DNA from: a virus
DNA: 51,036 nucleotides
Strand: one strand, 5' to 3'
Virus record (IMG/VR): IMGVR_UViG_3300029775_000002
Location: 1-51,036 of that record
Part shown: positions 2,334 through 18,716 of the stretch, piece after piece
How the letters are laid out: each line of letters opens with the position of its first letter
Position numbering within the stretch: the first letter of the stretch is position 1
Program-made: the position numbers and the translations under genes
Notes under the pieces: generated by a model
Seen by the model: the letters and a program-made list of their open reading frames with translations, nothing else
What the model was told of the DNA's origin: nothing
Databases searched by the model: none

Positions 2334-2635
2334 TATTTTTCCTCCATCTTTTCAATATCATTACCTTCGTCATCAACAGCACATCGCACTTTCGTCAGTT
2401 ACCGGCGCATCGAATTCACACCCACAACTACAAGCCCACAAAGCCATATTGTTTCACCTCATTATATTCAAAATGTTGTACGATTTGCTAACGATACAGC
2501 GCAAACATCACAATCAAAATCAATGAATAGGTCATCTCTGAATCGCTTATCTCCATCTGGGTATATCGAAACGCTCTGTCTGTAGTCAAAGGAGTCTCCA
2601 TTTGAAATTAAGTTTTCTCGTATTTGTAGAGTCAT

Positions 2636-2779: not shown

Positions 2780-3186
2780 ACTAAGTACATAGGGTCTTAT
2801 AACATATAAAGATTTGCTGTACTATTCAGTACCAAATTATAATATACACTACAGTACAACTATATACACTAATGAAATGGTTAACGAAACCATCCAAACA
2901 AGTCTAAAACGCTATCGAAATAATCGATATCTGTTGCCGCATAGAAGATGATATTTAATTTTGCTATACGTTTCTCAATGTTTATTTACAAAAAAGTTTA
3001 CGGTTATCGGTAATAACTTCTATATTCCTATATGTTATAGAATAATCGAGCAAACAAACACATAGGGGAGAAATGAAAAAGTTAAAAAATTAGGAAAAAC
3101 TAAAAATTAGAAATTAATTTTATTCAGGTTAACGTATGTTAAAAACGCAGTCGGTTAAACGATGTATATAGTTATACATTATTGAT

Positions 3187-3762
3187 TTAGCCCCATTGTT
3201 CAGCCATTGCTCTTGCGAATCCTTCAAACGTTTTTGATCTGATCTCTGCTCTATCTTCACTAGGGGGAAGATTATACCATTCAGGAAGGCTTTTTCCGCT
3301 TTTCGTGATGTGTCTTTTACCTTTGCTTACAATATTCGTAGGCTGGAGAAGTGGGAGATTTTTAAGCCAAAGACAAGTTGTTTTTGTATGAGGATCTCCA
3401 AACATGTACGGCTGGACTATCTGGTCAGGTTTCCTTATATGAGTAGAAATTATAGAAACTGGGTTTTCTATTGCTATTTTTGGAATGTCGGCACTCATCA
3501 ACAATCTTACAAAATCTAAAGCTTCTTTTTGTTCTTTCTGTTTTTTATAAAACCATCTAGCACCTGAAACCGCGAGATGTGTACAGTCTGGATGGAACAC
3601 AGCTAAATCCCAACCATCGTTTATAATGTCCATCACGTCTCCCTGGTAATGTGGTCCAGGTCGTGTAGATGGTTTTAAATCACAACTTATTGCATCGTGC
3701 CCTTTCTCAAAAAATGCATCTCTAACAGTTCCAGAACACTCACAACCGACTAAGACTTTCAT
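3187..3762 (-). CDS. Phage-type DNA cytosine-C5 methyltransferase-like protein
   Basis: N-terminal MKVLVGCECSGTVRDAF SAM-binding segment, HPDCT catalytic Cys region, IENPV motif VI, QPYMFG and K.TCLWL motifs. Confidence 0.7.
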   Translation of the reverse strand: MKVLVGCECSGTVRDAFFEKGHDAISCDLKPSTRPGPHYQGDVMDIINDGWDLAVFHPDCTHLAVSGARWFYKKQKEQKEALDFVRLLMSADIPKIAIENPVSIISTHIRKPDQIVQPYMFGDPHTKTTCLWLKNLPLLQPTNIVSKGKRHITKSGKSLPEWYNLPPSEDRAEIRSKTFEGFARAMAEQWG

Positions 3763-3766
3763 TTTC

Positions 3767-4351
3767 TCACTTCCTCAATATTCCCCATTCCGTCAACCTC
3801 TTCTCAATATCTCGCATTTCATAATCAGTGAAACTTAAACTCTGATAATGCCTTAAAGATGTTACCGGATCATGTCCTTGTCTTCCGTATATTTCTATCT
3901 CAGGTATCCCACATTTCAACATCCAGCTCTCAATCGTTTTCCTCGGTGTTTTCGGACCAATCTTAGGCGCTATACCAGCTTTTTCAGACCATCTCTTTAG
4001 GTTCTTATTCCAGCTATCTCTATGAGGCGGTCTAGGAGCCTCTAAGAAAGCCTTGAAAAGATATGGAAATGTAGAGGGCAGTTTGTCTATAGTCCTCTTA
4101 ACAAGTTTCTGCTTAACCTTCTTCTGAGCATCCGGAGGTAAGATAATCTGGTTTCTTTCTTTATGATACCATTCTGGATGATCGTACAACCTTTGCAGCT
4201 CAATGTATCGAAGTCCTGTAATTACATTGAGCTCGAAGGCCGGTCTATACGTTTTGCCTTGTTTTTTTTCAGGGATGAATTGAAGAAATTTATCGTATTC
4301 TTCGACGGTTAGGACTTTTGTACCGTCGCCGGTTACTAGGCCGTTATCCAT
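3767..4351 (-). CDS. Short tyrosine recombinase/integrase (catalytic domain only)
   Basis: TGLRYIE (Arg), KTPRKT (KxxR in place of HxxR), QGH followed 9 residues later by Tyr (GHDPVTSLRHY). Confidence 0.8.
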   Translation of the reverse strand: MDNGLVTGDGTKVLTVEEYDKFLQFIPEKKQGKTYRPAFELNVITGLRYIELQRLYDHPEWYHKERNQIILPPDAQKKVKQKLVKRTIDKLPSTFPYLFKAFLEAPRPPHRDSWNKNLKRWSEKAGIAPKIGPKTPRKTIESWMLKCGIPEIEIYGRQGHDPVTSLRHYQSLSFTDYEMRDIEKRLTEWGILRK

Positions 4352-4361
4352 GTATCACACC

Positions 4362-5309
4362 TCATAAAAACGAATTCTCTCCGTAGAACGCTTTGTTATC
4401 ACGGTTTGCTTCTATGATTTTGCTCCACCATTCATCTTTTATTTTTTCGTTAACATCGCCCCCCCACCATTCATACGAACACGCTTCATCCATTATTATG
4501 CAAAACATTTCATCTGGAATACCTTCAGGTTTATTTACCCAAGAATATTGTTTTAGTTTTTCTTCGATACGTTTCTCATGGCAGTCTTCCCTCTCCATTA
4601 CTCTATCCCAATATTCGTTGAATTCTTCTGTAGTAAAATAATCATCATCGGTACTTTTAGTTTGTATTATAGGAGTCTCACCGTGTTCAAACCTTGCCGA
4701 CATCGCTGCTTTTAAAGCGATGTTCACATGGTTGTTTTGTTGACCTTCGAAAGCATCGACCCACATACCATCTGGCAAATTAAGCGAAACAAGTCGTTTC
4801 ATTTCAGTTCCGGCAGATTCCGCGCCCCACCCCGCGTCTACCCAATTTATATCAAAACTATGTGTAAACTTTAATCCAGAATTAAAAAACGCAACGCTTG
4901 ATATATGCACTCCTTTACTATGTTGGATACATGGGAACTCTATAATAATATCCTTATCACTTGGAATCCAAATATTAGATAAAATTAAAATTCCTCTTTC
5001 AGTTTGCCAACTATCTGCAATATCAGGCAATTGCCCTCCATAATCTACGGCATTTGCCAACATTGCCCAATAATCCACCGTTACATTTTCTAAATCACCC
5101 TTTACTTCTACCCATGTTTTTGTTTCTGGAAGGTAAAAATCTGGAAGGTAATACCACGTTTTACAGCTACCACGGTCTTTGATTTCATACCCTTCTTTTT
5201 CATACTCATACTTAATCCCTAGAGTATCAAAGAATACAGCCCATCTAGCTTCCAACCTGCTCCGAAATCTATACCCGTTATATACCGTTTCAATTGGCTT
5301 AATTTCCAT
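4362..5309 (-). CDS. PD-(D/E)XK nuclease-domain protein
   Basis: FRSRLEARWAVFFD..YEYE..YLPDFYLP...VEVKG, a common phage nuclease signature. Confidence 0.75.
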   Translation of the reverse strand: MEIKPIETVYNGYRFRSRLEARWAVFFDTLGIKYEYEKEGYEIKDRGSCKTWYYLPDFYLPETKTWVEVKGDLENVTVDYWAMLANAVDYGGQLPDIADSWQTERGILILSNIWIPSDKDIIIEFPCIQHSKGVHISSVAFFNSGLKFTHSFDINWVDAGWGAESAGTEMKRLVSLNLPDGMWVDAFEGQQNNHVNIALKAAMSARFEHGETPIIQTKSTDDDYFTTEEFNEYWDRVMEREDCHEKRIEEKLKQYSWVNKPEGIPDEMFCIIMDEACSYEWWGGDVNEKIKDEWWSKIIEANRDNKAFYGENSFL

Positions 5310-5450
5310 AAGTAAACCTCTTCATTTAGTAAACAACGACATAATATAAAAAGGTAGTTATTTTTAATTATAAAAATATTGATATTAATCTATAAGAAAA
5401 TTTACTTATATACTCAAAAAAGTTAATAATTGAAATAACGACATTTTATC

Positions 5451-5840
5451 TTAAAAGGTAGTTGTTAAAGGGGTAGGCATCCCATCTTTCTCATACTCAT
5501 AAACCGGAATCCCCATTTCTTCAGCTATAAACCTCTCAAGCTTCGCACCTTCGGACAGTTCCCAATCAGGGATCATAAGAAGTGCATCACCGGCTTTAAC
5601 TGACATCCGGCGAATAAATGATATATCGCCATCCATCCAGATTTCCCATTTTTCATTACAATGCTGAAACCCGGATGTATTTTTATGAGGACATAACGCA
5701 GCCCATCCGAAAACCCAAGCTTCAAGGGCTATCTTAGAGGCTTTTAATATATTTTCATTAATTCCGTGTATAGGATCTGAATGAGAAAACGGACCAGATA
5801 TATATAAAATCGGGCGAGTACCAAATTCTTTATTATCCAT
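5451..5840 (-). CDS. Nucleoside 2-deoxyribosyltransferase-like protein (DUF4406/DUF1937-type)
   Basis: YISGPF...CPH...D(ALL)...W..SEGAKLE...A..MGIPV pattern. Confidence 0.65.
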   Translation of the reverse strand: MDNKEFGTRPILYISGPFSHSDPIHGINENILKASKIALEAWVFGWAALCPHKNTSGFQHCNEKWEIWMDGDISFIRRMSVKAGDALLMIPDWELSEGAKLERFIAEEMGIPVYEYEKDGMPTPLTTTF

Positions 5841-5841
5841 T

Positions 5842-6282
5842 TTAAAACACCTTCCTTAACTTTCTCTCAATCCAATCAGGCACAATAGCCCGATACCCAG
5901 AATATACCTTATCAGTAATTATATGAGTCCATAACATAAGTACAGCTCCTATTATACTCTCAATCGAAACATGATACCCGTAAACAGTCAACGGAACCCA
6001 TAAAAAACTTATCAAAATGAAAGGCCCCCATGCATAATCATGAAGTATCTCCCGGTGTCCAGCTTTTGAAAAAGGTTCCCAAATTCTCCCGAAAGGGCCC
6101 CATAGCTTTCTAACAATACTTTCCTGAGAGTCCAGGTCGCTTGTTATAAGGAATGTATAGGGCATCATTCCAATCCAGAAGTTTTGTAATCCTTGAAAAT
6201 TTAAATAGCCTGTCAAGAAGCCCCAGATTGAAGAAGAGAGAGCGACGAAGAGACAGGCGTAAACGTGGGTACTGTATTTCAT
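5842..6282 (-). CDS. Putative metal-binding membrane protein (DUF2227-like)
   Basis: TH, SDLD, W.PF...GHR...H and H...D motifs set among hydrophobic segments. Confidence 0.6.
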   Translation of the reverse strand: MKYSTHVYACLFVALSSSIWGFLTGYLNFQGLQNFWIGMMPYTFLITSDLDSQESIVRKLWGPFGRIWEPFSKAGHREILHDYAWGPFILISFLWVPLTVYGYHVSIESIIGAVLMLWTHIITDKVYSGYRAIVPDWIERKLRKVF

Positions 6283-6719
6283 TAAGCTATAACCTCATCA
6301 ATCTTATTCTGAATATGAGCCCCCTTTATCTTTGGATACCTTCCAACTAAAAGCCCCAATACGTTCTCAGGATCGGCATTTACGGCGACATAATGATAAT
6401 TCCATTTGTTATCTGTATACCTAACGTATACGAGGTTATCAGCTTTGGAATCCTGAATTATATCCTCGATCTCGCATTCGCATCTGAAATGTTTAATATC
6501 TGATCTTGAGCTTAACAGAGTTCTTACAGCCGACTGCTCATCGAATGCTCTAATCATTATATAATGATCCTGCCATTCTTGAGTATTATAATTGATAACG
6601 TAATGGCTTTCTTCTGGTTCTTGTACGGTTTCATGCGCTGCATTAGTGCCAAGCACTTTGTTTATTATGTCAATAAGTTTCATCTCACGGCAACCCCCTG
6701 AAAGCTCCCAGTACTCCAC
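6282..6719 (-). CDS. Hypothetical protein
   Basis: 145-aa ORF coupled to its neighbours; real start probably MKLIDII. Confidence 0.55.
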   Translation of the reverse strand: MEYWELSGGCREMKLIDIINKVLGTNAAHETVQEPEESHYVINYNTQEWQDHYIMIRAFDEQSAVRTLLSSRSDIKHFRCECEIEDIIQDSKADNLVYVRYTDNKWNYHYVAVNADPENVLGLLVGRYPKIKGAHIQNKIDEVIA

Positions 6720-6783
6720 ATGATAGCAGCCTGTCTTTCTTCCTGTTCTCTACACTTCAAGTACTCTTCAAGTTCTTCATAGG

Positions 6784-7086
6784 TCATATTCTCCCAACCC
6801 CTACTGACCAACAGCCCCACCATATAAGAGCAAACGCTGAATAACAGAACATGTCGAATTTGTTCATTACTCTGTCACTCCACAGATCCCATTTCCATGT
6901 AGGATGTTCGGTTTGTGATAATTCAGTAATATAAGAGAGGTAGTTATCGGATGCATCTATGCCATCAATAAAAGAACGGAGCTCTTTTTCAGGAGGCAGG
7001 TCTTTGTTTTCAGTCTGTGCTGTTACAGCTGAAACTGCAACAATCATTATTAAAAATGCTATACATATCTGTTTTAACGCTTTCAT
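6784..7086 (-). CDS. Secreted or membrane-anchored hypothetical protein
   Basis: N-terminal signal peptide and C-terminal hydrophobic helix. Confidence 0.55.
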   Translation of the reverse strand: MKALKQICIAFLIMIVAVSAVTAQTENKDLPPEKELRSFIDGIDASDNYLSYITELSQTEHPTWKWDLWSDRVMNKFDMFCYSAFALIWWGCWSVGVGRI

Positions 7087-7115
7087 GGATTAATTTACAC
7101 CTCAAATTGTTAATG

Positions 7116-7316
7116 TTAACCATCTGGGTATTTTTGCTCCCTGATACACAGCTCCCCAGTATCTTTTTTTAGTTTGTATATCAGGTCCTTCCCTTCGAAA
7201 AATCCTCTTATTTTTGAATAATCTTCTGTGCCAAAATAGAGCATACCTAGCTGACGTTTTTGATTATATACACGCATACTTGTAGTTCCGGTAATTTCAG
7301 TTTCAGTTTCTTTCAT
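7116..7316 (-). CDS. Small AbrB/SpoVT-like regulator (tentative)
   Basis: 66 aa with a beta-rich pattern; divergent from the VirB-like operon. Confidence 0.4.
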   Translation of the reverse strand: MKETETEITGTTSMRVYNQKRQLGMLYFGTEDYSKIRGFFEGKDLIYKLKKDTGELCIREQKYPDG

Positions 7317-7358
7317 GTGATTACCTATTGTCTAGGATATAGCATCTATTTGTTATAT

Positions 7359-7406
7359 TAAATAACCTTCATTGTAGATAAATTTATCTACAATGAAGGT
7401 TATTTA
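7359..7406. repeat. Perfect 48-bp spacerless palindrome
   Basis: TAAATAACCTTCATTGTAGATAAA|TTTATCTACAATGAAGGTTATTTA, checked base by base. Confidence 0.97.
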
Positions 7407-7454
7407 GTTACTACACATAAAAAAAATTAAATGTAATTTATGAGAGGTTTAATT

Positions 7455-7853
7455 ATGAAAATTGCAGCAAAAATTCTACTGGTGCTACTCATGGCATCTA
7501 TTATTTTACCTGGATTTGCATCAGCAGCTGAGCCAGGTGCGATTCCGGAAATAGGCAATATCACTGGACCATCTACTACCACAGATGTTACTGGCGGGCT
7601 TGGGATATTTTCAAAACTTGGACAATTCTTAATGGATTATTCAATCCACATAGCGGTATTCGTAATGGTGCTAGCTATAGTGATATTGTCAGCAAGGGGT
7701 TCGTGGGCTCGCAGTAATCAGCGCTCAGAAGAAGCGTCTGAGAGTAGGTCAAATACGAAAGGGCTAATCATAGACGGTGTAATGACAATGGCAGCCTTGA
7801 TGTTCGTATTTTTTATTTTGGCACCGTTTGTCAAGAGTTTCATTCCGGCGTGA
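7455..7853 (+). CDS. VirB2/TrbC-like pilin or membrane subunit
   Basis: Signal peptide (…ILPGFASA|AE) plus two hydrophobic helices; first gene of the operon ending in VirB4. Confidence 0.55.
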   Translation: MKIAAKILLVLLMASIILPGFASAAEPGAIPEIGNITGPSTTTDVTGGLGIFSKLGQFLMDYSIHIAVFVMVLAIVILSARGSWARSNQRSEEASESRSNTKGLIIDGVMTMAALMFVFFILAPFVKSFIPA

Positions 7854-7865
7854 TGAGGTAAGAAC

Positions 7866-8069
7866 ATGAACGAATTTCAAAGAGAAGACATGATAAAAAG
7901 CGTTTCAGGCACCGTAGAAAGAAACTACTGTGCGATAAAACGTGAAGAATTGTTTGAAAAGTATAAAAACACCGATCAAGAAACGATGAAAAGTGTTATA
8001 GAGACTATGAAAAGACGAGGAATCTTGAGATACGACCAAAAAAACGACAAATACCGACTGGTGCTATAA
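7866..8069 (+). CDS. Small winged-helix protein
   Basis: VIETMKRRGILRYDQKNDKYRLV wing pattern. Confidence 0.5.
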   Translation: MNEFQREDMIKSVSGTVERNYCAIKREELFEKYKNTDQETMKSVIETMKRRGILRYDQKNDKYRLVL

Positions 8070-9500
8070 ATGAATAAATGGTTTGTCCTGCTTGGATTAT
8101 TTTTTATTGGTTCAATTGATGTTGTTAGCGCAGGACAGACAATTTATTTAGATCCTACTGATGAAGATGGGATCAATAAGGCACTAGAAGCCGCTAAAAA
8201 TGAGCCTGGAACTACTACAATAATACTAAATCCAGGCACATATGAAATTAAAGGCTCTCTAATTATCTATTCTAATACTGTTTTGAAAGGCGACCACGCT
8301 AAAATCTTAGTTTCCTCAAAATCAAAACAGTGGTTTATCCCTCCAAATGGGATAATCACAACTAAAGGACCCGTCGAAAACGTCACAATTGAAAATCTTA
8401 TAATAGACGGCAACTGTCACATGCTCCCGGCGAAATATGCAGATACACCGGGACATAAACACGACTGCGAGAAGCTCATTATCATAAAGGGGTACAGTAA
8501 CAAAAATTCAAAAAATATAGTTATCCGTAACTGTATATTTGCAAATGCCTTTTCTGATGCTGTTTATGTCGCACATTCAAAAGACGTAATCGTAGAAAAT
8601 AATCAAATTTCAAACTGCCAGCACTCTTCTATTTATTTTTCATGTGTTGTTAGTGGTCTTATTAAGAAAAACGATATCGCGGGGATAACAAGCGATAACG
8701 TTCGAGTTGAAAATTCTAAAAATGTAAAGGTACTGTATAATAATCTGTATGGATATTTCGGGAAAAAATCAAATGGAGCTTACCAGGGTGGGCACAATTT
8801 AGTACAAGTAGGGGACCAGGGCTTTTCTCATGGGTATGGTTCACCTAAGTCGATACATACTGAAAATATCGAAATCGCTTATAATACATTTTCAGGAAAA
8901 CATCTGAACACTATTTGGATAGACGCAGCCGGGAAAACTCCCACTACAAACCTCTGGATACATGATAATGAGTATGTCGATATGCCGGAAATTGAAAGGG
9001 ACGGATACAGCGCAGAAAACCCGCCTTCAATCGAAGAAACCGAGGAGATATTCACAACCTTGAAAGATCTCCTTAAAAGAGATTACACTTTCCAATATTT
9101 AGATACTGAGCAGGATTTAGAGGCATCAGCAGAAGCCGTTTATCACAATTACTCAACTGCTCCGTATAGCTTACTCACGGTTGAAGGAGAGGACGATATA
9201 GAGGTTATCAAGATTTCCTACGATGGGAACTCAGCCAGGCACTTTATAGAACGTGATATGTGGGTGGGTGATTTCCAGAGAGTGGGGGATGGTTGGTATA
9301 TTCCAGGCGAATTCGATGCGAATGAGTTAAAAATAACAGTTTACTCAAAAAACGGATATAAAACGTTATCAGAAGATGAAATAGAAATCAGGAACGCGAA
9401 AATCGGGTTAGCTGCAATTAGTGTTGATCTGTTCAATTATATTGCAACGCTGGCGATTTCTGGAATATCAATAACAAGAAGCATCAGGAGAATTTTATAA
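8070..9500 (+). CDS. Secreted, C-terminally membrane-anchored right-handed beta-helix protein (disaggregatase/pectate-lyase-like)
   Basis: Signal peptide, INKALEAA..TIILNPGTY, repeated N..I.NN beta-helix rungs, terminal hydrophobic helix followed by RRIL. Confidence 0.75.
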   Translation: MNKWFVLLGLFFIGSIDVVSAGQTIYLDPTDEDGINKALEAAKNEPGTTTIILNPGTYEIKGSLIIYSNTVLKGDHAKILVSSKSKQWFIPPNGIITTKGPVENVTIENLIIDGNCHMLPAKYADTPGHKHDCEKLIIIKGYSNKNSKNIVIRNCIFANAFSDAVYVAHSKDVIVENNQISNCQHSSIYFSCVVSGLIKKNDIAGITSDNVRVENSKNVKVLYNNLYGYFGKKSNGAYQGGHNLVQVGDQGFSHGYGSPKSIHTENIEIAYNTFSGKHLNTIWIDAAGKTPTTNLWIHDNEYVDMPEIERDGYSAENPPSIEETEEIFTTLKDLLKRDYTFQYLDTEQDLEASAEAVYHNYSTAPYSLLTVEGEDDIEVIKISYDGNSARHFIERDMWVGDFQRVGDGWYIPGEFDANELKITVYSKNGYKTLSEDEIEIRNAKIGLAAISVDLFNYIATLAISGISITRSIRRIL

Positions 9501-10615
9501 TGAGGCTGAAATGCGTATTAGTTCTATTGATACTGCTTATATCCATGACCGGGGCGGCTCTTGCTGCAGAGGAAAAACTGAAGGTCAGGAACTCGGACGG
9601 TGAAGAAGTAACAAGGGACACGACCCCTAAAAAATCAATGACTTTAGAGGATGCCGTTTCCCTTAATGCTGACATGGAGGACGCTGGAGTTCTGAGTAAT
9701 GACAATGAAGACGAAGAAACCGAGGAAGACGAGGCTCCTGAGAAATCATATAATAAAGAAATAGTTGAAGATGAAGATTATATAAGAAACGAAGTTGCGG
9801 CCGGAAACGAGCAATTTTTAACCGGGTTATTCACAGGGATTTACACAGAGTTCCAAAATTCTAGCGTAAAGGATGAAAACGGCAATGTGGCAGGTATGAT
9901 TTATACAGTCGTCACTTTTGTCCCGAACCCTTACGAGAATAATACAATAGTGGACTTATACGGCGGGTATGTCAATCTCTGTATATTCCTTACAGTTATG
10001 TTCGTTTTAGGGGAATCCGTTAATCGTAGTGCTGCCAGGATGAAAATAACTTCAGGTTCTAAGTATAGTCTCCCTCCTAGAAGGCTTATAGGCGGGCTTG
10101 CTATGTGCATGTTTGCGGTAATGGGAAACGTGTTTTACATGCTCATATTAGAGATAATCGAAGCTCTAAACGGCTTCATTACAATGCCCGTAGTTCCTGC
10201 AATGACTCCAGACCCAGAGCATTTCTTTACGTTTTTGATGATGGGACTCTGCGACCTGCTTGTAATGATATTTTTTATAGTTCGGTACTTCCTGATTTAC
10301 ACTTTCGCCGTGATTTGCGGGGTTGTTTTTGTCCTGTTAGTTTTCAAAACATCAAGGGACTTCTCACAAAATGTTATCGAGAAAATGATAAGGATTCTAG
10401 CCCTTCAGCCAGCTTCTTTGTTTGTCACATCAGTATGCATTTTAGCAATAGATTCGTTACCAATGCCCCTTCAGCGTTTCGGTTATGTAGGGGTTACGGT
10501 TGTAATATTCTTAACTTGTTACTATTTCATGTTCGGAAATTTCACGCTGCTTAAAACGGGTATCAGTACCGCAGTCTCAAAAGGATTAGTTAAAACCGGA
10601 GTTCGATACAAATGA
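9500..10615 (+). CDS. VirB6/TrbL-like polytopic membrane protein
   Basis: Signal peptide, acidic stretch, then about 6 TM helices; position in the VirB4 operon. Confidence 0.55.
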   Translation: MRLKCVLVLLILLISMTGAALAAEEKLKVRNSDGEEVTRDTTPKKSMTLEDAVSLNADMEDAGVLSNDNEDEETEEDEAPEKSYNKEIVEDEDYIRNEVAAGNEQFLTGLFTGIYTEFQNSSVKDENGNVAGMIYTVVTFVPNPYENNTIVDLYGGYVNLCIFLTVMFVLGESVNRSAARMKITSGSKYSLPPRRLIGGLAMCMFAVMGNVFYMLILEIIEALNGFITMPVVPAMTPDPEHFFTFLMMGLCDLLVMIFFIVRYFLIYTFAVICGVVFVLLVFKTSRDFSQNVIEKMIRILALQPASLFVTSVCILAIDSLPMPLQRFGYVGVTVVIFLTCYYFMFGNFTLLKTGISTAVSKGLVKTGVRYK

Positions 10616-11607
10616 CCAACGAAACACCATATTCACAAGCAAGACCACCAAAAACAATCACAAGAATAAAATCAGACAGGTTCTTAGACCTTACCAACCT
10701 CCATACATGGATACTGTTCGCAGCAACAGCCGCATGTATGTATCTCTTCAGGGAGATGTCAAACAGTATAATAGTTGTACTAACAGCAACCAGAAATATG
10801 ACACCAGAAGAACTGATAACAGATGCTTACATGAACATTCTTATGTATGCTTCAATGCTCGTTTTAGTCGTGTTTTTCTGGTTGAAATATTTTAGAAACG
10901 ATGATCTCGTGGAATACCAGAAAGACCGGACAGTGTTTTTCATCCAGGGTCTACGCGGGAAGCATGTAATCAATACAATGGCTGAATCAATGGAGAACCT
11001 GTTAAAACTCGTTTCTATCGTGGGAATCCATGACAGCACAGACGGGATAAAGGAAACTAAAGCCCCAAAAGGTGTTATAATTGAATTTGGTCCTCATATC
11101 TCATTTATCCAGAGATTGAAAATCTTCTTCAGGCTCGAAAAGAAGAAGCTGAATGAATATGGGGTACTGATTGAAACATTCCCGCCCAGGCTCTCAGATG
11201 AATTCCGAGAGTTTCACGAGATGGTACTCCAAAAGGTTGTAAACGGGCTTCCGGTTAACACGTTATTTGAAAATATATCCTGCTCTGTGATGGAGCCCAA
11301 AAAGCAGGTTTTAGAGTATCTGCTCTCACTAATGAACACCTCAAAGGGGGATGCAAGCGACAAACATCTTGCAGACATGTATCTCAAGATTTCTACTGAT
11401 AACGAACTTGTAATAAAATGGCGGTATTATTCCTTCATTTCATTGGGAGAGCGTAAAAATATAGCTGCTGCAAGGGTCCAGTATGGGGCAATAATCCCAG
11501 GGCTCATATCAAGTATGAAAGGTGCTTCTCTGTGCCCTGTAGTGCTTAGAGATCAACAGTCGGTAATTGAAGCTTATAAAATTATGTTAGGGGAGGTAGA
11601 CGCATGA
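10612..11607 (+). CDS. VirB3/PrgI-like protein (two TM helices plus soluble domain)
   Basis: Two N-terminal hydrophobic helices; overlaps the VirB4 start (ATGA). Confidence 0.45.
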   Translation: MTNETPYSQARPPKTITRIKSDRFLDLTNLHTWILFAATAACMYLFREMSNSIIVVLTATRNMTPEELITDAYMNILMYASMLVLVVFFWLKYFRNDDLVEYQKDRTVFFIQGLRGKHVINTMAESMENLLKLVSIVGIHDSTDGIKETKAPKGVIIEFGPHISFIQRLKIFFRLEKKKLNEYGVLIETFPPRLSDEFREFHEMVLQKVVNGLPVNTLFENISCSVMEPKKQVLEYLLSLMNTSKGDASDKHLADMYLKISTDNELVIKWRYYSFISLGERKNIAAARVQYGAIIPGLISSMKGASLCPVVLRDQQSVIEAYKIMLGEVDA

Positions 11608-14165
11608 TAGTTCAAAAAGTCAAGAATCTTAAAACGAATGTAAAGAAGAGATGGAACGATGCTGGACACTACGCAGATAATCAAGCATGGTCTAGGTCAT
11701 ATGCAAGAAAGATTCTTCCAAGCAGGATTGAGGTATTTGATACTAATCTCGTATTTAATCAGAGAATGGTAGTCCGAACTATTGTATGTGGTTTACCAAC
11801 TGATACAGGTTCAGAAGGATACCCACGAGACTTCAGCAGCAAAACTATTGAGCAGATACAGAACCTAGCGTTTGATGGGGTTAGGGTCTTAATTTCTACG
11901 GGTCTCATTCAGTTGCCAGGGGTTCACACAAAAGAGACGTTAGAGCAGGCACATTTTGATGCAGGAGTTAGGCGAAGCCAAAACAATCACGAAGGGACTG
12001 AGAAAGATGAGCTCGAACTTACTATGAAAAGTCAGGATATCATACAAAACTATTCTGAAATATATTACAAGTCTCAAAAGGCTTTTCATGCTTCTTTTGT
12101 TGTCGTCCTGCGTGGGCCTGCTGATCTAGTGTTCGAGGCTGAAAGTAAATTAATAAACATTATCAGAGGGGAAAATATAGAGGTTACTATTCCTAGCAGG
12201 CTTCAGCTTGAGATGCTACAGACGGCTTTACCTGGACCAGACACTCACCCTAGATCATGGGTTGAAGTTCGTTCAGACGGGGCGGCGGTCTTATCATCTG
12301 CAACAAACCTGAACAGCCGGACAGATGATACAGGCATGTATTTCGGGAAGGACATGTTAACCAATAATGAAATTATGTTCGATCTGGATAGACTTGCAGC
12401 CAAAACACTGGCTATGTGTGGAGCTACAGGGTCCGGTAAAACATATGCTTATCTGCTGCTTCTCATGCGGTTGAAGACTCTCAGGGATGCCCGGATAATA
12501 TACACGACTCCAAAGGCCGATGAAGGCACTAATTATAGGTCTGTAGCGGCTGCATTTGGGGACAATGGCTGTATAGCTGACATTGGTATTAATGGATCTG
12601 AATATTTCAATCCTCTTGATATTCTGATTGACCTTGAGAGCATGGGACTGAACAAGGAAGAACTGAAGGGAGCCAGGAAACATATATTTGAAAATTTATA
12701 CGACCTGAAGAAAGGGACCTTAATAAACGCTCATAGAATCTGGTTAGGCTCAGAATTCACGTCAAATATGGCTAGTTATCTCGATGAGTCCCTTGATTAT
12801 GTTTACGAGCAAGCAGGAATCTATAGGGATGAACCGGACAGCTTTTCAAATCCAATGCCTGTATATCCTACACTCCGTTTTAAATGGGAGCTGGATAAGG
12901 AAAACAAGAACTTAGGGACTAAACAGAAGACCGCAGAGGCACTTTATAATAAGACTTATCAGTTCTCTTCAACTGGATTATTTAATAGATACTGCAACCA
13001 GACAAAAGGGCTGGACCTTAACAAAGACTTCATTATAATAGATATGGCAAACGTCCCAGACGAGATTAAAACGTTTATGTCAGTCATTGTAAACGGGGCT
13101 ATAGCTTCCAGGTTCAGCACTCACAACGAAAGAGAGACCTATCTAGCGATTGATGAAGGCGGGGTCTACCTTCGGGATAAGCTATTAAGAGAACAGATGC
13201 TACAGAGGCTCACGCAGGGTAGGAGTCATAAGTTTTACCAGTGGATTGCAACACATCAGCCGTCAGACTTCTCTAAAAATGGAGTCGGTGAGGACTTCAG
13301 GACGAATACCTACATAAATATCCTGATGGGAAACAACATTAAAAAATCCCTCAATGATGTAAAAGACTATTTTGAGTTAACAGAAAACGAATGCTCTATA
13401 TTGTCAAACTGTACTGTAGGACAGGGTCTATTACTATTCGGAGATTCCGAAGATGAAAGAGTTCCCATCTTCTTTGAGTCTACAAAATGGGAGCATGAAA
13501 CGATCAAAGGAATAGGATATGAAGACAAAAAACCAGTTGCTGATAGTGGTTTAACGTTTAAGAGGGAATTCAAGCATTTAATAGCAGATCATAAAATCAT
13601 CTTTTCAGACTGGTTTGATGGCGACTCTTCCGTATTATTACAACAGGGCTACGAAAAACACCAAGTTTCCAGAGTTAACAAACCAGGAACGGTTGGTGCT
13701 TTTTTACCAAAGGGTTCTGTCAGGAATGGACGGATAATATTACCGCATTTGGGAGACATGAAACTCATTCATTTCTCTGATGTGATCCAGTTAGACCCGT
13801 TAATGCAGTCTGAAAACTTCGAGGAAATAACGATAAACCACAATCAGGATGTGGATATTAAGGGCCGGAAAAATGGAAAATGGCTTGGCTTGGAAGTCGA
13901 AATAAAAGGCTCTCACACTACAGAGGAATTGATAGCAAAGAAGGCAGCTGCACTCGGAAAAGGAATGGAAGTTCGTTTCATTTGCAGTTCCGCGGATTAT
14001 CCCTTCATTTCAGGGACCGTAGGTGAGGATTATACGCTTAAAAGAGGGTCGGACGTTGCTGATTTCTTAAAGAATTTCGCGGCTGAAGAAGAAAACGGCG
14101 AAGAAGAAACAGATATTCAGGTTCCTGCTGAATCTGGACTGATTACTGATGAATTGGAGGCTTAA
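11604..14165 (+). CDS. virB4: VirB4-like secretion/conjugation ATPase with a C-terminal PD-(D/E)XK-like domain
   Basis: Walker A GATGSGKT, FNPLD, IIIDM, Walker B LAIDEGG, ATHQPSDF and GQGLL motifs; 853 aa. Confidence 0.8.
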   Translation: MIVQKVKNLKTNVKKRWNDAGHYADNQAWSRSYARKILPSRIEVFDTNLVFNQRMVVRTIVCGLPTDTGSEGYPRDFSSKTIEQIQNLAFDGVRVLISTGLIQLPGVHTKETLEQAHFDAGVRRSQNNHEGTEKDELELTMKSQDIIQNYSEIYYKSQKAFHASFVVVLRGPADLVFEAESKLINIIRGENIEVTIPSRLQLEMLQTALPGPDTHPRSWVEVRSDGAAVLSSATNLNSRTDDTGMYFGKDMLTNNEIMFDLDRLAAKTLAMCGATGSGKTYAYLLLLMRLKTLRDARIIYTTPKADEGTNYRSVAAAFGDNGCIADIGINGSEYFNPLDILIDLESMGLNKEELKGARKHIFENLYDLKKGTLINAHRIWLGSEFTSNMASYLDESLDYVYEQAGIYRDEPDSFSNPMPVYPTLRFKWELDKENKNLGTKQKTAEALYNKTYQFSSTGLFNRYCNQTKGLDLNKDFIIIDMANVPDEIKTFMSVIVNGAIASRFSTHNERETYLAIDEGGVYLRDKLLREQMLQRLTQGRSHKFYQWIATHQPSDFSKNGVGEDFRTNTYINILMGNNIKKSLNDVKDYFELTENECSILSNCTVGQGLLLFGDSEDERVPIFFESTKWEHETIKGIGYEDKKPVADSGLTFKREFKHLIADHKIIFSDWFDGDSSVLLQQGYEKHQVSRVNKPGTVGAFLPKGSVRNGRIILPHLGDMKLIHFSDVIQLDPLMQSENFEEITINHNQDVDIKGRKNGKWLGLEVEIKGSHTTEELIAKKAAALGKGMEVRFICSSADYPFISGTVGEDYTLKRGSDVADFLKNFAAEEENGEEETDIQVPAESGLITDELEA

Positions 14166-14265
14166 TATACCTCCTTTTCAAAAGGCACTATACAGATAGC
14201 TGTATAGATTGGCGGGCGGGATGCCTGGCAAAAAATAATTTAATCCTTTTTTAGGTGATCTAATA

Positions 14266-14508
<243 letters not shown>

Positions 14509-14564
14509 GATAGAATATAGTATAGTAGTAGTGTGTACACACAGATACACACAATCCCTTTAAT

Positions 14565-14996
14565 ATGGAGGTCTTATCCTTGTCTTCTCTCACTTCCACA
14601 AACGTAAAATTAGAATCCGAAAAGCTCGAACTTATAAAAATGAAAGGCGTCAATGTCTCGGCTTTATGCAGGGATGCGATAGACTCTTATCTTAAATTAA
14701 ATAGCACAGATAAAGCCGTTATAAAGAGCCAGATCGCAGACTTACAACAGCAAAGGAATTCTATTGACCTACAAATAAAACTCCTCCTGAAGCAGTTAGA
14801 AACATGTGAGAACGAAGACGTATTAAGCACTCATCGAAACGCAATGTATGATAAATGGAAAACTAACATGGCGTTTATGGTCAATAAAAAGACTATTGAT
14901 TGGGGTACTATTTCAGATGTCTTCAAGTTCTCAACAAGGGCAGAATGTGAGGCATACATTATAAATAGGTTGAAAGAAGATGGATTAATTAATTAA
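14565..14996 (+). CDS. RHH plus coiled-coil DNA-binding protein
   Basis: TNVKLESEKLELIKMKGVNVSALCRDAIDSYL RHH pattern, heptads, KFST motif shared with 17738-18244. Confidence 0.6.
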   Translation: MEVLSLSSLTSTNVKLESEKLELIKMKGVNVSALCRDAIDSYLKLNSTDKAVIKSQIADLQQQRNSIDLQIKLLLKQLETCENEDVLSTHRNAMYDKWKTNMAFMVNKKTIDWGTISDVFKFSTRAECEAYIINRLKEDGLIN

Positions 14997-15174
14997 CACT
15001 TCCAGAGGGGTATCTATTGACAGGCGACAAATCCGAGGTGGAGAACCAGCTCGTAGAAATAGAAAAGGAAATAGAGTGTTTAGATGCTCAAAGGCGTTTA
15101 CTCCTTTCCATTCTTGAAACTATTAATAACGAAGTCCCGACAGGGGCTTAACTACTCTTTTATTTAAATCGTTA

Positions 15175-15399
15175 TTGGTTGACGATGTGTACACGTACAC
15201 ACATTTAATTAAGGATGTTCTCTTGTTTCGTTGTTTTCAACGGTCTCTCTCTCAAAACAAAAAGGATCTTGCAAGATTAACTAAGAGAGTTGCTGAACTA
15301 GAAACCACTAATGAGACCTTAGTTCGCTTCCTTCGCGGGAAGTTCAGGAAGGATTCACACAAGCTAACAAAGCTCTTAAATATGAAGAAATATCAATAA
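15175..15399 (+). CDS. Hypothetical coiled-coil protein
   Basis: 74-aa ORF with heptads LARLTKRVAELETTNETL. Confidence 0.35.
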   Translation: MVDDVYTYTHLIKDVLLFRCFQRSLSQNKKDLARLTKRVAELETTNETLVRFLRGKFRKDSHKLTKLLNMKKYQ

Positions 15400-15744
15400 A
15401 CCACAACGCGAAGGAGGATTTAAGAGGCAAGAAAAACGGTAAATGGCTGGCAATTGAATATGAGAAAAAGGGCAGTCATACGAAAGACGAACTAATCAAA
15501 AAGAAGCTTGCTGCACTCGAAAAGGGATACGAGGTTAGGTTCATTTGCAGTAGCTCGGATTATCCCACTATTTCGGATGCCGTGGGTGAGGAATACACCC
15601 TTTCGAGAGGGTCAGCCGTTACCGATTTCCTAAAGAATTTCAGGAATCAAAACATAGAAAAAGCTGAAATGCTGGATCCTGGAACTTCTCAGGAACTTAC
15701 CGAAGGAATGGAGGCTTAATATGCCTCCTTTTCAAACGGCACTA
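15381..15744 (+). pseudogene. 5'-truncated diverged copy of the virB4 3' end and its downstream sequence
   Basis: Open frame YEEISINHNAKEDLRGKKNGKWLAIEYEKKGSHTKDEL…MEA* matches VirB4 FEEITINHNQDVDIKGRKNGKWLGLEVEIKGSHTTEEL…LEA*; both are followed by ATAT(A/G)CCTCCTTTTCAAA.GGCACTA; no start codon. Confidence 0.85.
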
Positions 15745-15756
15745 AGGAAGAAAAAG

Positions 15757-16065
15757 TTATTTTTTCGAATAGTAAAGTGCTACACATTCCCGCTCATACG
15801 TGAATACTTTTCCGCATCTCTGACATTCAAAATCTGTCTCATAATCTTCTAGGTCAACATCTCCGCATCCCTGTTCTTCTCCACAGTGAGGACATACTAA
15901 CCGAGATGTACCTGAGCAATAGATCTCTTTTTCTTCAGTCATGTGCTTTAACCCTCCTTCCCAAACTTCGTTCAGGTCGCCAACATAGACACCAGGTCCA
16001 TATTTTTCTTCTGCTAATTTTTGAGCTTCTATCCTATCAATCTTCATATTTTCACCTTCAATCAA
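15757..16065 (-). CDS. Zinc-ribbon protein
   Basis: CPHCG and CQRCGK motifs. Confidence 0.6.
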   Translation of the reverse strand: MIEGENMKIDRIEAQKLAEEKYGPGVYVGDLNEVWEGGLKHMTEEKEIYCSGTSRLVCPHCGEEQGCGDVDLEDYETDFECQRCGKVFTYERECVALYYSKK

Positions 16066-16210
16066 TTGAGCAACAACAAAAATGTTTTGAAAAAGAATTA
16101 TGCGGGAATTCTTGAGAGATATTCGCTCTCATACTCCCTTCTGATATCTTCAACCGTTCTCAGGACTGCAGCTTACATGCTGTGTTGTTTAGTTTGCAAT
16201 ACTGCATATT

Positions 16211-16438
16211 TTATTCCTCACATTCCTTGATCTTCTCTTTCAATTCCCTGTTTTCATATTCAAGCGCAGGCACTCTTTCCGCCTGCAACATAGCATATAA
16301 CATTCCATCCTCTAGTGTTTTTACTCGATGCCCATTTATTGTGCGTCCATCGAGTTTTAATTTACTTACGAAAATTTTAAACTTCTCGCGAGTTGTCGGA
16401 TGGACATCCGCGAATTTTACTTTTTTCTGGTCCTGCAT
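16211..16438 (-). CDS. Hypothetical protein
   Basis: 75-aa ORF in a coupled minus-strand run. Confidence 0.5.
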   Translation of the reverse strand: MQDQKKVKFADVHPTTREKFKIFVSKLKLDGRTINGHRVKTLEDGMLYAMLQAERVPALEYENRELKEKIKECEE

Positions 16439-16612
16439 TTTTCAGACCTCTTACATCAAAATTATGTTCTTTATAATAATCAGTTCGATTATTATTGCAA
16501 TTATTGCAATCAATCCATATCTACTCATCCAGAAATCTGGATCATGAAATGCTGCAATAAAATGTTTAATTATGTTCTTTTTCATTTCTTTTCTCCTATT
16601 TTCCGTGCCATT

Positions 16613-16798
16613 TTAGAAAGCTTTTTCTGCATCTTCAAGAAGCAGATTATCTCTTTTTTCAATTAGTTTTCTCTGTTTTTCCTGAAGAGTGTAAAACTCC
16701 TCATCTGAGTAGTCATACCCGTTTTCATATCTATGCGCGAAATCAAGTTCTACAGCATTTGCCTCGATTTCTCTATTTAGTTCTTTTATTGATGTCAT
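16613..16798 (-). CDS. Hypothetical coiled-coil protein
   Basis: 61-aa ORF with a GGAGG RBS. Confidence 0.5.
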   Translation of the reverse strand: MTSIKELNREIEANAVELDFAHRYENGYDYSDEEFYTLQEKQRKLIEKRDNLLLEDAEKAF

Positions 16799-16800
16799 TT

Positions 16801-17229
16801 TCAGACCTCCACAAATCCGCAGTGCCTGAATACTGCGGTCTTTTTGACCGAACCATCGGGCTGGGTCTGGTCAATACTTTCCCTTTTTGAGAAAGCGTAC
16901 ATTGGCAGGATATCAACTTCTTCAGAATGTAGAACCCGTTCTATTTTCCCCATGAAATATGGTGCACCACCTATCATGGCAAATCCTCGATAGTTTTCTT
17001 CGGAGTCATATTCATCTGGGAAATATTTTACAGCGATTTTCGCTATTTTTTCAGCCCTTTGGTACATGTGCCATGATTCAGTTTCGGCAATTTCATCAAA
17101 TGTAAGGAGTTTCTGTATCCTCTTCTTGTCTTCAGCAGAAGGTTCGAACACTCCGGCTTCGATCTGTTCATGGGTTGCTACATGTTGGGTTAGGTTCAAA
17201 ATTTTTCCATATATCATTTTCTTTTTCAC
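16801..17229 (-). CDS. Conserved phage hypothetical protein
   Basis: NLTQH.AT.EQ…MIGGAPYFM…YAFSKRES…DGSV.K pattern recalled from phage hypothetical proteins. Confidence 0.6.
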   Translation of the reverse strand: MKKKMIYGKILNLTQHVATHEQIEAGVFEPSAEDKKRIQKLLTFDEIAETESWHMYQRAEKIAKIAVKYFPDEYDSEENYRGFAMIGGAPYFMGKIERVLHSEEVDILPMYAFSKRESIDQTQPDGSVKKTAVFRHCGFVEV

Positions 17230-17477
17230 CTTTTCTTATTTTCTCGCGGGGCCTTTCGCCCTCGTACAATACTACTATACGCACTATTCATATAAGTACT
17301 TTTCGTATAATCCGTATAAATGTAAGAATTGTATTAAAATGACGCCCGATTTCATCTAAAAAGAATACAAAAAAGAAATATTAACCCCATTTTTCCACTA
17401 ACTCAGCCAAAGAAATAGACTGAGCTGACGTAACTTCGAATTTCGTATAATACATATATCCCATTTCCTAAGGAACT

Positions 17478-17748
17478 AATTATGTATATATCAAATTCAA
17501 TTCGTATATACAATAATCACATCTGGAAATAATAAAGAATATCGATATCAGTCGAATTTGTTATATACTCAATTCAATTATGTATATATCTAATTCACGT
17601 CTATTACTATACTACTATACTATACTTTACAGAATTTAATATATTATATATATAATATACGAAATTCATTTTTACATCATCTTTTAGTTTTTTTCGTTCA
17701 TGTATTGTGTATATATCAAATTCAATTATGTATATACTCAATTCAATC
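17478..17748. repeat. Iteron-like ~21-bp direct repeats around an AT-rich core (candidate origin or centromere)
   Basis: About 5-6 copies of TATGTATATA(TC/CT)(A/C)AATTCAAT, partly in tandem pairs, flanking ACTATACT repeats and AATTTAATATATTATATATATAATA. Confidence 0.75.
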
Positions 17749-18244
17749 GTAGGTAACTCTTTACTTTCTTTTCAGGTACTCCTTCGTTGATCCAAACATT
17801 CATGACGTATTCCTTTGCTTCATCGAATGTTGAAAACTTCCAGGCTTCCATGAGATGTTCCATCCAGAGTCTATTATATGTACTCTTGGACTGCATTGAC
17901 TTTATACACCCTATTATGTACACTCTTCTTTTATCCTCAAACTCTTCTCGTTCTCTTTCTTCCTGAGCTAGAAGTTCTTCATTTTCTTCGAGTTCTATGA
18001 GCTGCATTTCTCGTTGATGTAGGATAATCTCATACTCTTTTATTTTATTTTTAGTCTCTTCGATGTCCTTTTTTAATTGCTCTATAGGTGAACTTTTACT
18101 TTTCCTGAAAGCCGCTATGCTTTCTCGCAAAAACTCGGATAATTCCTTATCATACCCTTTCATAAATTCCAAGTCTGCGCTTTCAATAGAAACACAGGTA
18201 GTTACTCGGTTTTTTAGTTTCGGTTTACGTCCTCTAGGAGCCAT
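17738..18244 (-). CDS. RHH plus coiled-coil DNA-binding protein (paralog of 14565-14996)
   Basis: VTTCVSIESADLEFMKGYDKELSEFLRESI RHH pattern, coiled coil, WKFSTFDEAKEY. Confidence 0.6.
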   Translation of the reverse strand: MAPRGRKPKLKNRVTTCVSIESADLEFMKGYDKELSEFLRESIAAFRKSKSSPIEQLKKDIEETKNKIKEYEIILHQREMQLIELEENEELLAQEEREREEFEDKRRVYIIGCIKSMQSKSTYNRLWMEHLMEAWKFSTFDEAKEYVMNVWINEGVPEKKVKSYLRLN

Positions 18245-18381
18245 AGTTTCACCTACCGAGAACGATAAATATATATGCAAAAAAAGCCATATTGTTAATT
18301 GCCAATGTATCTAGGCTTTTCAAGATATATAGCATCGGGAGTGCCGCAAACATTCCCGGAGCTTATCGTTCTCTCCTATTT

Positions 18382-18588
18382 TTAGACTGTTTTATTGAAG
18401 CGAAATTTCTCAGGATACATCTTGTTCAGGATCTCATCAATGATGTCCTTAACATGATATCTCGTTCCAGTTGATTCCGTTTTTTCCTTAGCGAGTTCCT
18501 TTAGCAGCGCGTTGGCTTCATAGGATACATTCGCTTTTGTGTAGCCTGGATCGTAAGTAATGTGCAATACCTCCATAATATCAAACAT
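18382..18588 (-). CDS. Small RHH-like regulator
   Basis: KANVSYEANALLKELAKE…VKDIIDEIL pattern; a 22-bp palindrome lies immediately upstream. Confidence 0.5.
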   Translation of the reverse strand: MFDIMEVLHITYDPGYTKANVSYEANALLKELAKEKTESTGTRYHVKDIIDEILNKMYPEKFRFNKTV

Positions 18589-18593
18589 TTAAT

Positions 18594-18615
18594 TAAGTAC
18601 TAGTACTAGTACTTA
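18594..18615. promoter_or_regulatory. 22-bp palindrome (TAGTAC repeats), putative operator
   Basis: TAAGTACTAGTACTAGTACTTA between a TATA-like tract and the start of 18382-18588. Confidence 0.55.
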
Positions 18616-18676
18616 CTAGTATATATAACTATCACAGTTTTATAAAAATATAAATGTTATATATAACTCTAAAGAA

Positions 18677-18716
18677 TTGACATTCTCCCCTCCCCAAAGG
18701 AAGGGGATTCTTCTTT
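18677..18716 (-). mobile_element. IS200/IS605 right-end hairpin downstream of tnpA
   Basis: The minus strand reads GAATCCCCTTCCTTTGGGGAGGGGAGAATGTCAA and ends in TCAA. Confidence 0.65.

Follow-up and report, generated by a model that had tools for sequence, protein, structure and literature searches.

A conjugation-derived operon in a head-tail virus genome

The window analysed here is the whole of virus record IMGVR_UViG_3300029775_000002, a sequence of 51,036 bases that is catalogued as linear, is 76% complete as estimated by CheckV and belongs to a head-tail virus whose host is probably the methane-producing archaeon Methanosarcina. Within it, six co-oriented open reading frames (ORFs) on the + strand (7440-14165) encode proteins of 137, 67, 476, 371, 331 and 853 amino acids (aa); 12 nt separate the first two, the second abuts the third, and the remaining junctions share 1, 4 and 4 nt; position 7455, from which the operon was earlier drawn, is the second in-frame ATG of ORF1, which opens at 7440. 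Through a VirB4-class ATPase (ORF6) and a VirB6-like protein (ORF4), the operon is a member of the superfamily of type IV secretion systems (T4SS). All six genes are under purifying selection (ratios of nonsynonymous to synonymous substitution rates, dN/dS, of 0.05-0.14), a constraint that holds in the unsaturated comparison with a close relative (dS 0.17-0.39), and the fastest divergence between near-identical viruses is in the exposed parts, ORF3 and the ectodomain of ORF4. The gene order ORF4-ORF5-ATPase is retained down to 22-32% identity. The operon is intact, selectively maintained and derived from conjugation (type IV secretion) machinery. The original prediction from this DNA, of a translationally coupled six-gene operon sharing a replicon with virion genes, is borne out by the ORF calls, by the virion-gene matches and by the topologies of the encoded proteins, which here and below come from a simple hydropathy scan and reading of the sequences.

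The VirB4-class ATPase and its C-terminal domain

The VirB4 family is the only ubiquitous T4SS protein. ORF6 (11604..14165, +; 853 aa) encodes a soluble ATPase of this class with no transmembrane (TM) segment, in which the Walker A (G273, G278, K279, T280) and Walker B (D517, E518) residues are invariant among 16 homologues. Its NCBIfam matches, all of which score below the curated family cut-offs, are headed by VirB4-like CD1110 (6e-25, 88 bits versus a cut-off of 325) and continue with VirB4_CagE (1e-8), CedB (1e-7), TraC (4e-7) and HerA_antiphage (2e-6). A profile built from the 16 homologues matched VirB4 in the PDB (4ag5) at 5e-28 (100 bits) over aa 238-621, which delimits the VirB4 C-terminal domain of ORF6 (nt 12315-13466), whereas the same profile matched HerA at 6e-5 and FtsK at 0.6, and the HerA/FtsK matches were confined to some 60 residues around Walker A (E 6e-5 to 0.9). 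Both the NCBIfam ranking and the PDB profile match confirm the VirB4-type ATPase that had been predicted; it had been allowed that this protein might instead group with HerA/FtsK, but the VirB4 match is far better, and ORF6 is a VirB4-family ATPase and not a pumping ATPase of the HerA/FtsK kind. A HerA/FtsK or packaging-ATPase reading was rejected, since the matches cover Walker A only and the virus has its own large terminase (TerL).

The last ~225 residues of ORF6 are conserved down to 22-28% identity and contain a nuclease-like domain with a predicted PD-(D/E)XK-type fold (aa ~719-828; 13758..14087, +), in which H723, D751, E764, E766 and K779 do not vary even among homologues as distant as 26-28% identity. 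The arrangement of D751, E764-x-E766 and K779 departs from the canonical D...(D/E)xK spacing, the lysine being displaced into the following helix. By sequence, the C-terminal domain has no match in Pfam or the PDB. A model of the domain (predicted local distance difference test, pLDDT, 83) retrieved nothing at E 1e-3 or better with Foldseek, in a list that consists mostly of nucleases with the restriction-endonuclease fold (NucS, Hjc, DdmD, EcoT38I, Bax1, Can2) and in which Hjc has a probability of 0.99 but an E of 0.06; alignment of the model by VIA-align gave Z scores of 8.7 for the Can2 nuclease domain, 8.5 for VC1899 and 8.3 for Hjc. On this modelling the domain is probably a PD-(D/E)XK-type nuclease. 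Methanosarcinaceae genomes also have it on its own, in short ORFs or fragments.

The VirB6-like channel protein

ORF4 (9500..10615, +; 371 aa) encodes a signal peptide, a variable acidic ectodomain of ~120 residues and five TM segments. No match in the PDB was found for it by sequence, and a Pfam search of 78 relatives gave a match for one of the 78, at E 0.3. A profile of TrbL_3 (PF19590) matched nothing in 301 genomes from the class of the host, where its controls gave no match either. An AlphaFold model built on these 78 homologues (pLDDT 82) had no significant match with Foldseek alone, but when it was compared by VIA-align with all 48,161 PDB representatives, TrwI/VirB6 of plasmid R388 (7o3v) ranked first (Z 10.3; 210 of 261 residues; root-mean-square deviation, rmsd, 5.7); DotA, the channel protein of type IVB systems, followed at Z 8.0, and all others scored 7.3 or less. 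Re-scoring of the Foldseek list placed three R388 VirB6 entries at Z 11.3, 10.1 and 9.9, ahead of a designed repeat protein at 7.9. The language-model neighbours of ORF4 are without exception TrbL/VirB6 families; the top one scores 0.93 and has 211 of 256 features in common with it. Because these two independent methods and the gene position agree, ORF4 is accepted as VirB6/TrbL-like by its predicted fold, in keeping with the VirB6-like polytopic protein of the original prediction. The likeness to R388 TrwI/VirB6 (7o3v, 8rt9, 8rtd) lies in the membrane domain (Z 10.3-11.3 over 210-218 of 261-272 residues) at only 7-11% sequence identity and rmsd 4.8-5.7 A; unlike the R388 protein, ORF4 has an additional signal peptide and the ~120-residue variable ectodomain, and no VirB5 partner accompanies it.

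The remaining products of the operon

ORF1 (7440..7853, +; 137 aa) has a signal peptide ending ASA|AE, followed by a hairpin of two TM segments whose connecting loop is basic. This pilin-like topology is conserved, with 25 invariant columns across eight homologues; the Pfam TrbC and T4SS_pilin families gave no match among the eight members, and no Pfam domain was found in 105 homologues. ORF1 is a putative VirB2/TedC-like pilin by its topology and gene position only. A relation between VirB2 and VirB6 has reportedly been seen in the Ced system; comparison of ORF1 with ORF4 by hhalign aligned only the signal-peptide cleavage region (probability 1.6%), and such a relation was rejected here. ORF5 (10612..11607, +; 331 aa) has an N-terminal TM hairpin (one to two N-terminal TM segments in the hydropathy scan) followed by a cytoplasmic domain of ~230 aa, is translationally coupled to the ATPase gene and always lies directly upstream of it, down to 22% identity. 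No Pfam domain was found in 110 homologues of ORF5 and no match in the PDB, and its atlas neighbours reach 0.78 at best. It is far larger than VirB3, but its position and N-terminal TM hairpin fit VirB3, and by topology and position only it is a candidate membrane anchor in a VirB3-like role. The VirB2 and VirB3 assignments of the original prediction therefore stand as far as topology and gene position go, but the homology that they imply was found for neither ORF1 nor ORF5.

ORF2 (7866..8069, +; 67 aa) is a small soluble winged-helix-like protein with weak Pfam matches (MksE 6e-4, HTH_56 0.03) that occupies the same operon position in nine related loci. ORF3 (8070..9500, +; 476 aa) combines a signal peptide, a right-handed beta-helix of the pectate-lyase fold and a C-terminal TM anchor, and matches Pfam Beta_helix (6e-9), Pect-lyase_RHGA_epim (7e-7) and a PHROG tail spike family (7e-15). 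It is 25-28% identical to two disaggregatase-related beta-helix proteins of the same virus (36577-38076 and 39842-41299; Disaggr_assoc 2e-17 and 3e-30), and its orthologues in loci L009 and L044 bear the Disaggr_assoc domain. From these matches, ORF3 is a candidate depolymerase of surface polysaccharide (methanochondroitin) and a possible functional analogue of VirB1. The virus genome thus has three beta-helix paralogues, one at the end of the tail operon, one standing alone and one anchored in the membrane in the transfer operon (8070-9500).

The putative control region upstream

A perfect 48-bp palindrome (24+24, no spacer; 7359..7406) lies 34 nt upstream of ORF1, in the divergent promoter region beside a divergently transcribed 66-aa ORF (7116..7316, -). 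Its core, TTGTAGATAAATTTATCTACAA, recurs 5' of the pilin-like gene in the divergent relatives L013 and L007, and the L013 version is a perfect 52-bp palindrome in which both arms have changed together, so that symmetry is kept. In the simplest reading the palindrome is a candidate operator; it is also a candidate for a site resembling an origin of transfer (oriT). The 66-aa ORF, which has no Pfam match, is AbrB/VapB-like by eye and may encode a repressor of the operon; small MazE/VapB-type genes occupy the equivalent place in relatives L009 and L003.

Recurrence of the operon in viral and plasmid-like genomes

In the protein collection, 93 relatives of the ATPase were found, and 14 of 177 Methanosarcinaceae genomes contain a match to it. 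Three contigs (54-57 kb), each of a separate JGI or ENA sample, encode a 78%-identical ATPase and have one order in common: MuF, integrase, operon, ParB-like gene, scaffold, capsid; the IMG/VR relative L014, with an ATPase 45% identical, keeps the order MuF, operon, scaffold, capsid; and G348, a 48.4-kb genome with direct terminal repeats, has both the ATPase and a strong TerL match (9e-29). The record IMGVR_UViG_3300038313_000238 (L010, L053, L054) is collinear with the window through the terminase, portal, MuF, methyltransferase, integrase and operon genes, and because portal and MuF adjoin in its L054 segment, the two ends of the window are neighbours in the real genome. ATPase relatives at 62-67% identity adjoin a different set of capsid genes, a 44%-identical relative accompanies a capsid protein that is only 27% identical to that of the window, and a 34%-identical relative lies 7 kb from a terminase.

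The operon also occurs outside viruses. IMGVR_UViG_2663763426_000001 (G344; L012, L063, L064) is a circle of 21,095 bases with a 99-bp terminal overlap in which the six genes of the operon are intact and are accompanied by a family A DNA polymerase that includes a proofreading domain (6e-95; L064:4459-6096:-) and by a D5-type primase-helicase (L063:141-2204:-). It has no virion genes. Because none of its other ORFs is long enough for a terminase or portal, the operon is the only visible transfer function of G344, which from its gene content is a candidate conjugative plasmid of Methanosarcinales. A copy in a non-viral context (L006) lies among IS21 and AEP primase genes and has a frameshifted ORF5, and a copy on a 143-kb ENA contig (L044; locus 4900-12600) occupies a chromosomal island flanked by pst/phoU on one side and by alkaline phosphatase genes on the other, has its ATPase split into pieces and includes a 728-aa beta-helix protein with Disaggr_assoc. 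As both of these copies are broken, non-viral copies look, in a sample of two, as if they were decaying.

The accessory block and signs of cassette exchange

The operon is contained in an accessory block of ~19.7 kb (1084..20809) between the MuF and scaffold genes, with a G+C content of 0.36-0.41 compared to 0.45 in the head-tail module. In the related viruses L058 and L060 (MuF ~60% identical) the MuF-to-scaffold spacing is 0.8-1.1 kb and there is no operon. Direct repeats resembling att sites were sought at the flanks of the block and amounted only to 13-14-nt matches, near chance.

Alignment of the window (6867-14206) with the collinear record IMGVR_UViG_3300038313_000238, which has ~99% identical terminase, portal and MuF DNA, showed 95% identity in the first part of the operon, falling to 85% and then 76% in the ATPase gene; on this DNA comparison, recombination has made the pair a mosaic with the operon at its centre. 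Downstream of the intact ATPase gene lies what is left of another VirB4-type ATPase gene, a relic 3' end with no start codon (15350..15720, +) that is 73% identical in nucleotide sequence to positions 2218-2475 of the intact one, its open frame continuing the nuclease-like domain, and the 3' flanks of the two stop codons share a motif of ~25 nt. The relic looks like a recombination scar of cassette replacement; it was rejected as an allele of the near-identical relative, which has a third allele (76% and 70% identical). In the ATPase tree, which is unrooted and contains no reference VirB4, CedB or TedB sequences, the non-viral copy L006 is sister to that of the window (97/97), plasmid-like G344 is sister to the copy of a virus (100/99), and L009 pairs with L014 despite differing capsid proteins. 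As judged from these sequence comparisons, the operon is a cassette that moves between elements. The 1.2-kb segment between the ATPase gene and the relic contains an 80-aa zinc-ribbon-like ORF (14266-14508, +) that ends in ten threonines and then tyrosine (ACT repeats) and is not conserved in relatives.

Diverging from the operon is a leftward gene run (3187-7316, -) that encodes a DNA methyltransferase (PHROG 1e-68), a short tyrosine integrase (194 aa), a Holliday-junction-resolvase-like endonuclease (315 aa), a nucleoside 2-deoxyribosyltransferase-like protein, a DUF2227 protein, a secreted 100-aa protein and the 66-aa AbrB-like ORF. Because no tyrosine integrase was found in five other carriers of the operon, the integrase of the window is not part of the module. 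The block also contains a Y1 TnpA of the IS200/IS605 type (18717-19205, -; 5e-36).

Other features of the virus genome

A TerL (47098-48522; Terminase_6N 5e-41), a portal (49315-50553), an HK97-fold capsid protein (22364-23239; Linocin_M18 1e-13) and tail genes, all on one replicon, place the virus in Caudoviricetes. The small-terminase-like protein with a helix-turn-helix (46563-47114) precedes TerL, MuF (139-1083) and a scaffold-like protein (20810-21814) border the accessory block, and the tail genes include a tape measure (27965-31018). Further along are genes for a 1235-aa DUF2341 protein (32873-36580) and for RecT (42826-43893), with tRNA-Gln (anticodon TTG; 42026-42098, +) just upstream of the RecT region. 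A TnpB of the IS200/IS605 type with a Cas12f-like TNB domain (9e-24; 24911-26011, -) lies between the capsid and tape-measure genes. Several homologues of operon products carry the label Methanosarcina sp. No DNA match to the window was found among deposited phage genomes, and the one weak protein match there (22% identity) was to an unannotated faecal phage fragment.

Comparison with known systems

The closest parallels in composition are Ced (Sulfolobales, Aeropyrum) and Ted (Thermoproteales), which combine a VirB2-like pilin and a VirB6-like channel with a VirB4-like ATPase and have neither coupling protein nor relaxase (PMC9905601). Like them, the operon is a reduced archaeal derivative of a T4SS: its VirB4-like ATPase is the only one, next to a polytopic protein of the VirB6 kind and a small two-helix protein that is pilin-like, and it has no type IV coupling protein (T4CP), recognised relaxase or outer-membrane complex. 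TedC, too, has a cleaved signal peptide. Unlike the chromosomal Ced and Ted, which import DNA for repair, it is carried by Methanosarcinales viruses and a plasmid-like element; its ATPase has no TM segment, is preceded by a separate two-TM protein and is fused to a nuclease-like domain; and the operon further includes a putative beta-helix enzyme of the cell surface and a small winged-helix-like protein. The ATPase, which is the only component compared, is not a Ced orthologue, because the CedB equivalog model gives it 31 bits against a cut-off of 700.

The mating-pair formation class MPF-FATA of monoderm bacteria and archaeal plasmids (PrgH/TrbL, PrgI, PrgK) is approached in that the best ATPase match is a CD1110-type VirB4 (PMC4027160, PMC12102498), the nearest language-model neighbours of ORF4 are TrbL_3 and TrbL_4, and the gene sets run parallel (wall or matrix hydrolase, VirB6, small membrane anchor, VirB4). 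Unlike MPF-FATA systems, the operon has no T4CP, no recognised relaxase and no VirB8-like protein, its hydrolase is a putative polysaccharide enzyme with a beta-helix rather than a peptidoglycan hydrolase, and it includes a pilin-like protein, which is unusual in monoderm systems.

The combination of virion genes with plasmid- or conjugation-type functions in one element recalls phage-plasmids and tandems of a phage and an integrative conjugative element (ICE). Phage-plasmids are bacterial and are defined mainly by replication and partition genes, and phage-ICE tandems are bacterial pairs of adjacent elements with a complete T4SS, a T4CP and a relaxase (PMC7969092, PMC13651849), whereas the operon is a minimal T4SS-type core inside the head-gene module of archaeal viruses. 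New with respect to the described relatives are the head-tail virus carriers, the nuclease-like fusion, the putatively matrix-degrading beta-helix protein and the large ORF5 in place of VirB3. No paper was found on such a module or on VirB4 together with Caudoviricetes and methanogens, a 2023 compendium of methanogen viruses lying outside the search.

Proposed function and alternative explanations

The favoured interpretation, held at roughly even confidence, is that the operon encodes a reduced, single-ATPase envelope machine of the T4SS type, similar to Ced/Ted and MPF-FATA, which is an exchangeable accessory of Methanosarcinales head-tail viruses and for which DNA is the likeliest cargo. 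The VirB4-class motor, the VirB6-fold protein, the conserved gene order and purifying selection, all in carriers that include complete viral genomes, suggest that the virus may pass DNA directly between touching cells in addition to forming virions. In such a process, the small divergent regulator would release transcription of the operon from the palindromic operator; ORF1, bearing a signal peptide, would be processed and polymerised on the VirB6-like platform to form a short pilus or conduit; ORF5 would tether a soluble VirB4 hexamer to the same platform; and the membrane-anchored beta-helix enzyme would clear the methanochondroitin matrix locally. VirB1 does the corresponding clearing in peptidoglycan. 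The nuclease-like domain on the motor may make or process a DNA end and so stand in for both relaxase and coupling protein. The cargo exchanged between contacting cells of an aggregate, by export or by import, would most likely be DNA including the element's own genome; DNA as cargo and transfer of the element's own genome are proposed because of the nuclease fusion and of G344.

Contact-dependent spread is made more credible by G344, in which the operon is the only transfer module, and less credible by the lack of a coupling protein. A bolder proposal is possible but doubtful: that these are dual-mode viruses spreading both by virions and by direct transfer through a single-ATPase conduit in which the nuclease replaces relaxase and coupling protein, and that the same cassette is the sole transfer apparatus of plasmids with PolA and D5.

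Several observations weigh against the favoured interpretation. As the original prediction had stated, neither VirD4 nor a relaxase is recognisable: a six-frame search with T4CP profiles (PF02534, PF12696) of the window and four related records, of which two are complete, found no T4CP, although controls gave matches; the sole signal from these profiles was a weak match to the VirB4-like ATPase itself, and there is no second large ATPase ORF in the window. No relaxase family appeared in Pfam, PHROG and NCBIfam scans of the window ORFs, in which no MOB-specific profiles were used. Every described bacterial conjugative T4SS has a T4CP (PMC12102498), and because none is found here the operon does not qualify as a self-transmissible conjugative system. 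No homology could be detected between ORF1 and VirB2 or between ORF5 and VirB3, the Z scores of 10-11 for ORF4 lie under the value of ~13 at which helical matches become safe, and the fold scores of the nuclease-like domain are middling, with CheY-like folds close behind (Z ~7.3). Finally, Ced imports DNA rather than exporting it, so that direction and beneficiary could differ. Relaxases are also absent from archaeal ICEs and Sulfolobus plasmids (PMC6563490), and single-ATPase transfer of DNA with no relaxase has precedent in Ced/Ted and archaeal ICEs (PMC9905601, PMC6563490, PMC11868833).

The alternative that survives best, though unlikely, is import or exchange of the Ced/Ted kind, in which lysogens would take DNA from neighbouring cells via a VirB2-like pilus as a substrate for recombination of the provirus or the host, and the viral genome would not be exported. 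The composition of the operon matches that of Ced and Ted (PMC9905601), Ced is an importer, possibly bidirectional (PMC11868833), and the virus encodes RecT, but the CedB match is weak, the role of the operon as sole mover in G344 is a better fit with self-export, and Ced and Ted are chromosomal whereas the two chromosomal or non-viral copies of the operon examined are broken.

It is quite unlikely that the block between MuF and scaffold is simply a selfish exchangeable cassette, a nested mobile element that rides the virus from outside the viral life cycle. Its absence from related viruses, its lower G+C content, an ATPase tree in which viruses, plasmid-like elements and other contexts intermingle at shallow branches, the ATPase identity of 85% next to nearly identical terminase, portal and MuF DNA, and the relic ATPase end would all be expected of such an element; the direct repeats that might bound it do not exceed chance, however, and the block also carries ordinary viral accessory genes (methyltransferase, integrase, endonuclease), keeps its position where structural proteins are only ~50% identical, and in five other carriers has no integrase. 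This explanation concerns ownership rather than mechanism and is compatible with the favoured interpretation of the operon as a DNA-transfer machine.

A surface pilus or protein-secretion device that handles no DNA, serving adhesion, remodelling of aggregates, delivery of effectors or superinfection exclusion, is improbable. Protein export and killing are tasks for which T4SSs have been co-opted (PMC3548315, PMC12102498), and the missing T4CP and relaxase, the surface depolymerase predicted in the operon and the rapid divergence of exposed ORF3 and the ORF4 ectodomain are all in accord with secretion, but a conserved nuclease-like domain on a cytoplasmic motor is hard to explain without DNA, and no candidate effector gene is conserved beside the operon.

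An anti-virus defence system based on a HerA-type ATPase-nuclease fusion is very improbable: PADLOC gives matches to mad8 (1e-12) and HerA (2e-7) in addition to the HerA_antiphage match of NCBIfam, and the ATPase is indeed fused to a nuclease-like domain, but the VirB4 matches are much stronger, the HerA matches are limited to the Walker A region, and known HerA systems have no VirB6-fold channel, pilin-like protein or secreted depolymerase. A misassembly of a virus with an ICE, which the original prediction had named as a hazard and which the linear, 76%-complete record and the splitting of the head module by the block might suggest, is rejected as having a negligible probability, since this arrangement of genes is seen again in separate JGI and ENA assemblies of three samples, in IMG/VR relatives and in the complete terminal-repeat genome G348.

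Implications for Methanosarcina and its viruses

Horizontal transfer by virions and horizontal transfer by conjugation are regarded as alternatives, for which different elements are responsible. If the favoured interpretation is true, a conjugation-type machine in complete tailed-virus genomes, shared with a plasmid-like element, blurs that division, and the fusion of VirB4 to a nuclease-like domain is a concrete candidate for the processing and recruitment of DNA in archaeal conjugation without relaxase or coupling protein. Methanosarcina is genetically tractable, and the operon offers an experimental handle on cell-to-cell DNA transfer in this archaeon. Contact-dependent spread would take place within aggregates embedded in methanochondroitin, where free virions may diffuse poorly, and would alter the modelling of virus-host interactions for major methane producers in digesters and sediments.

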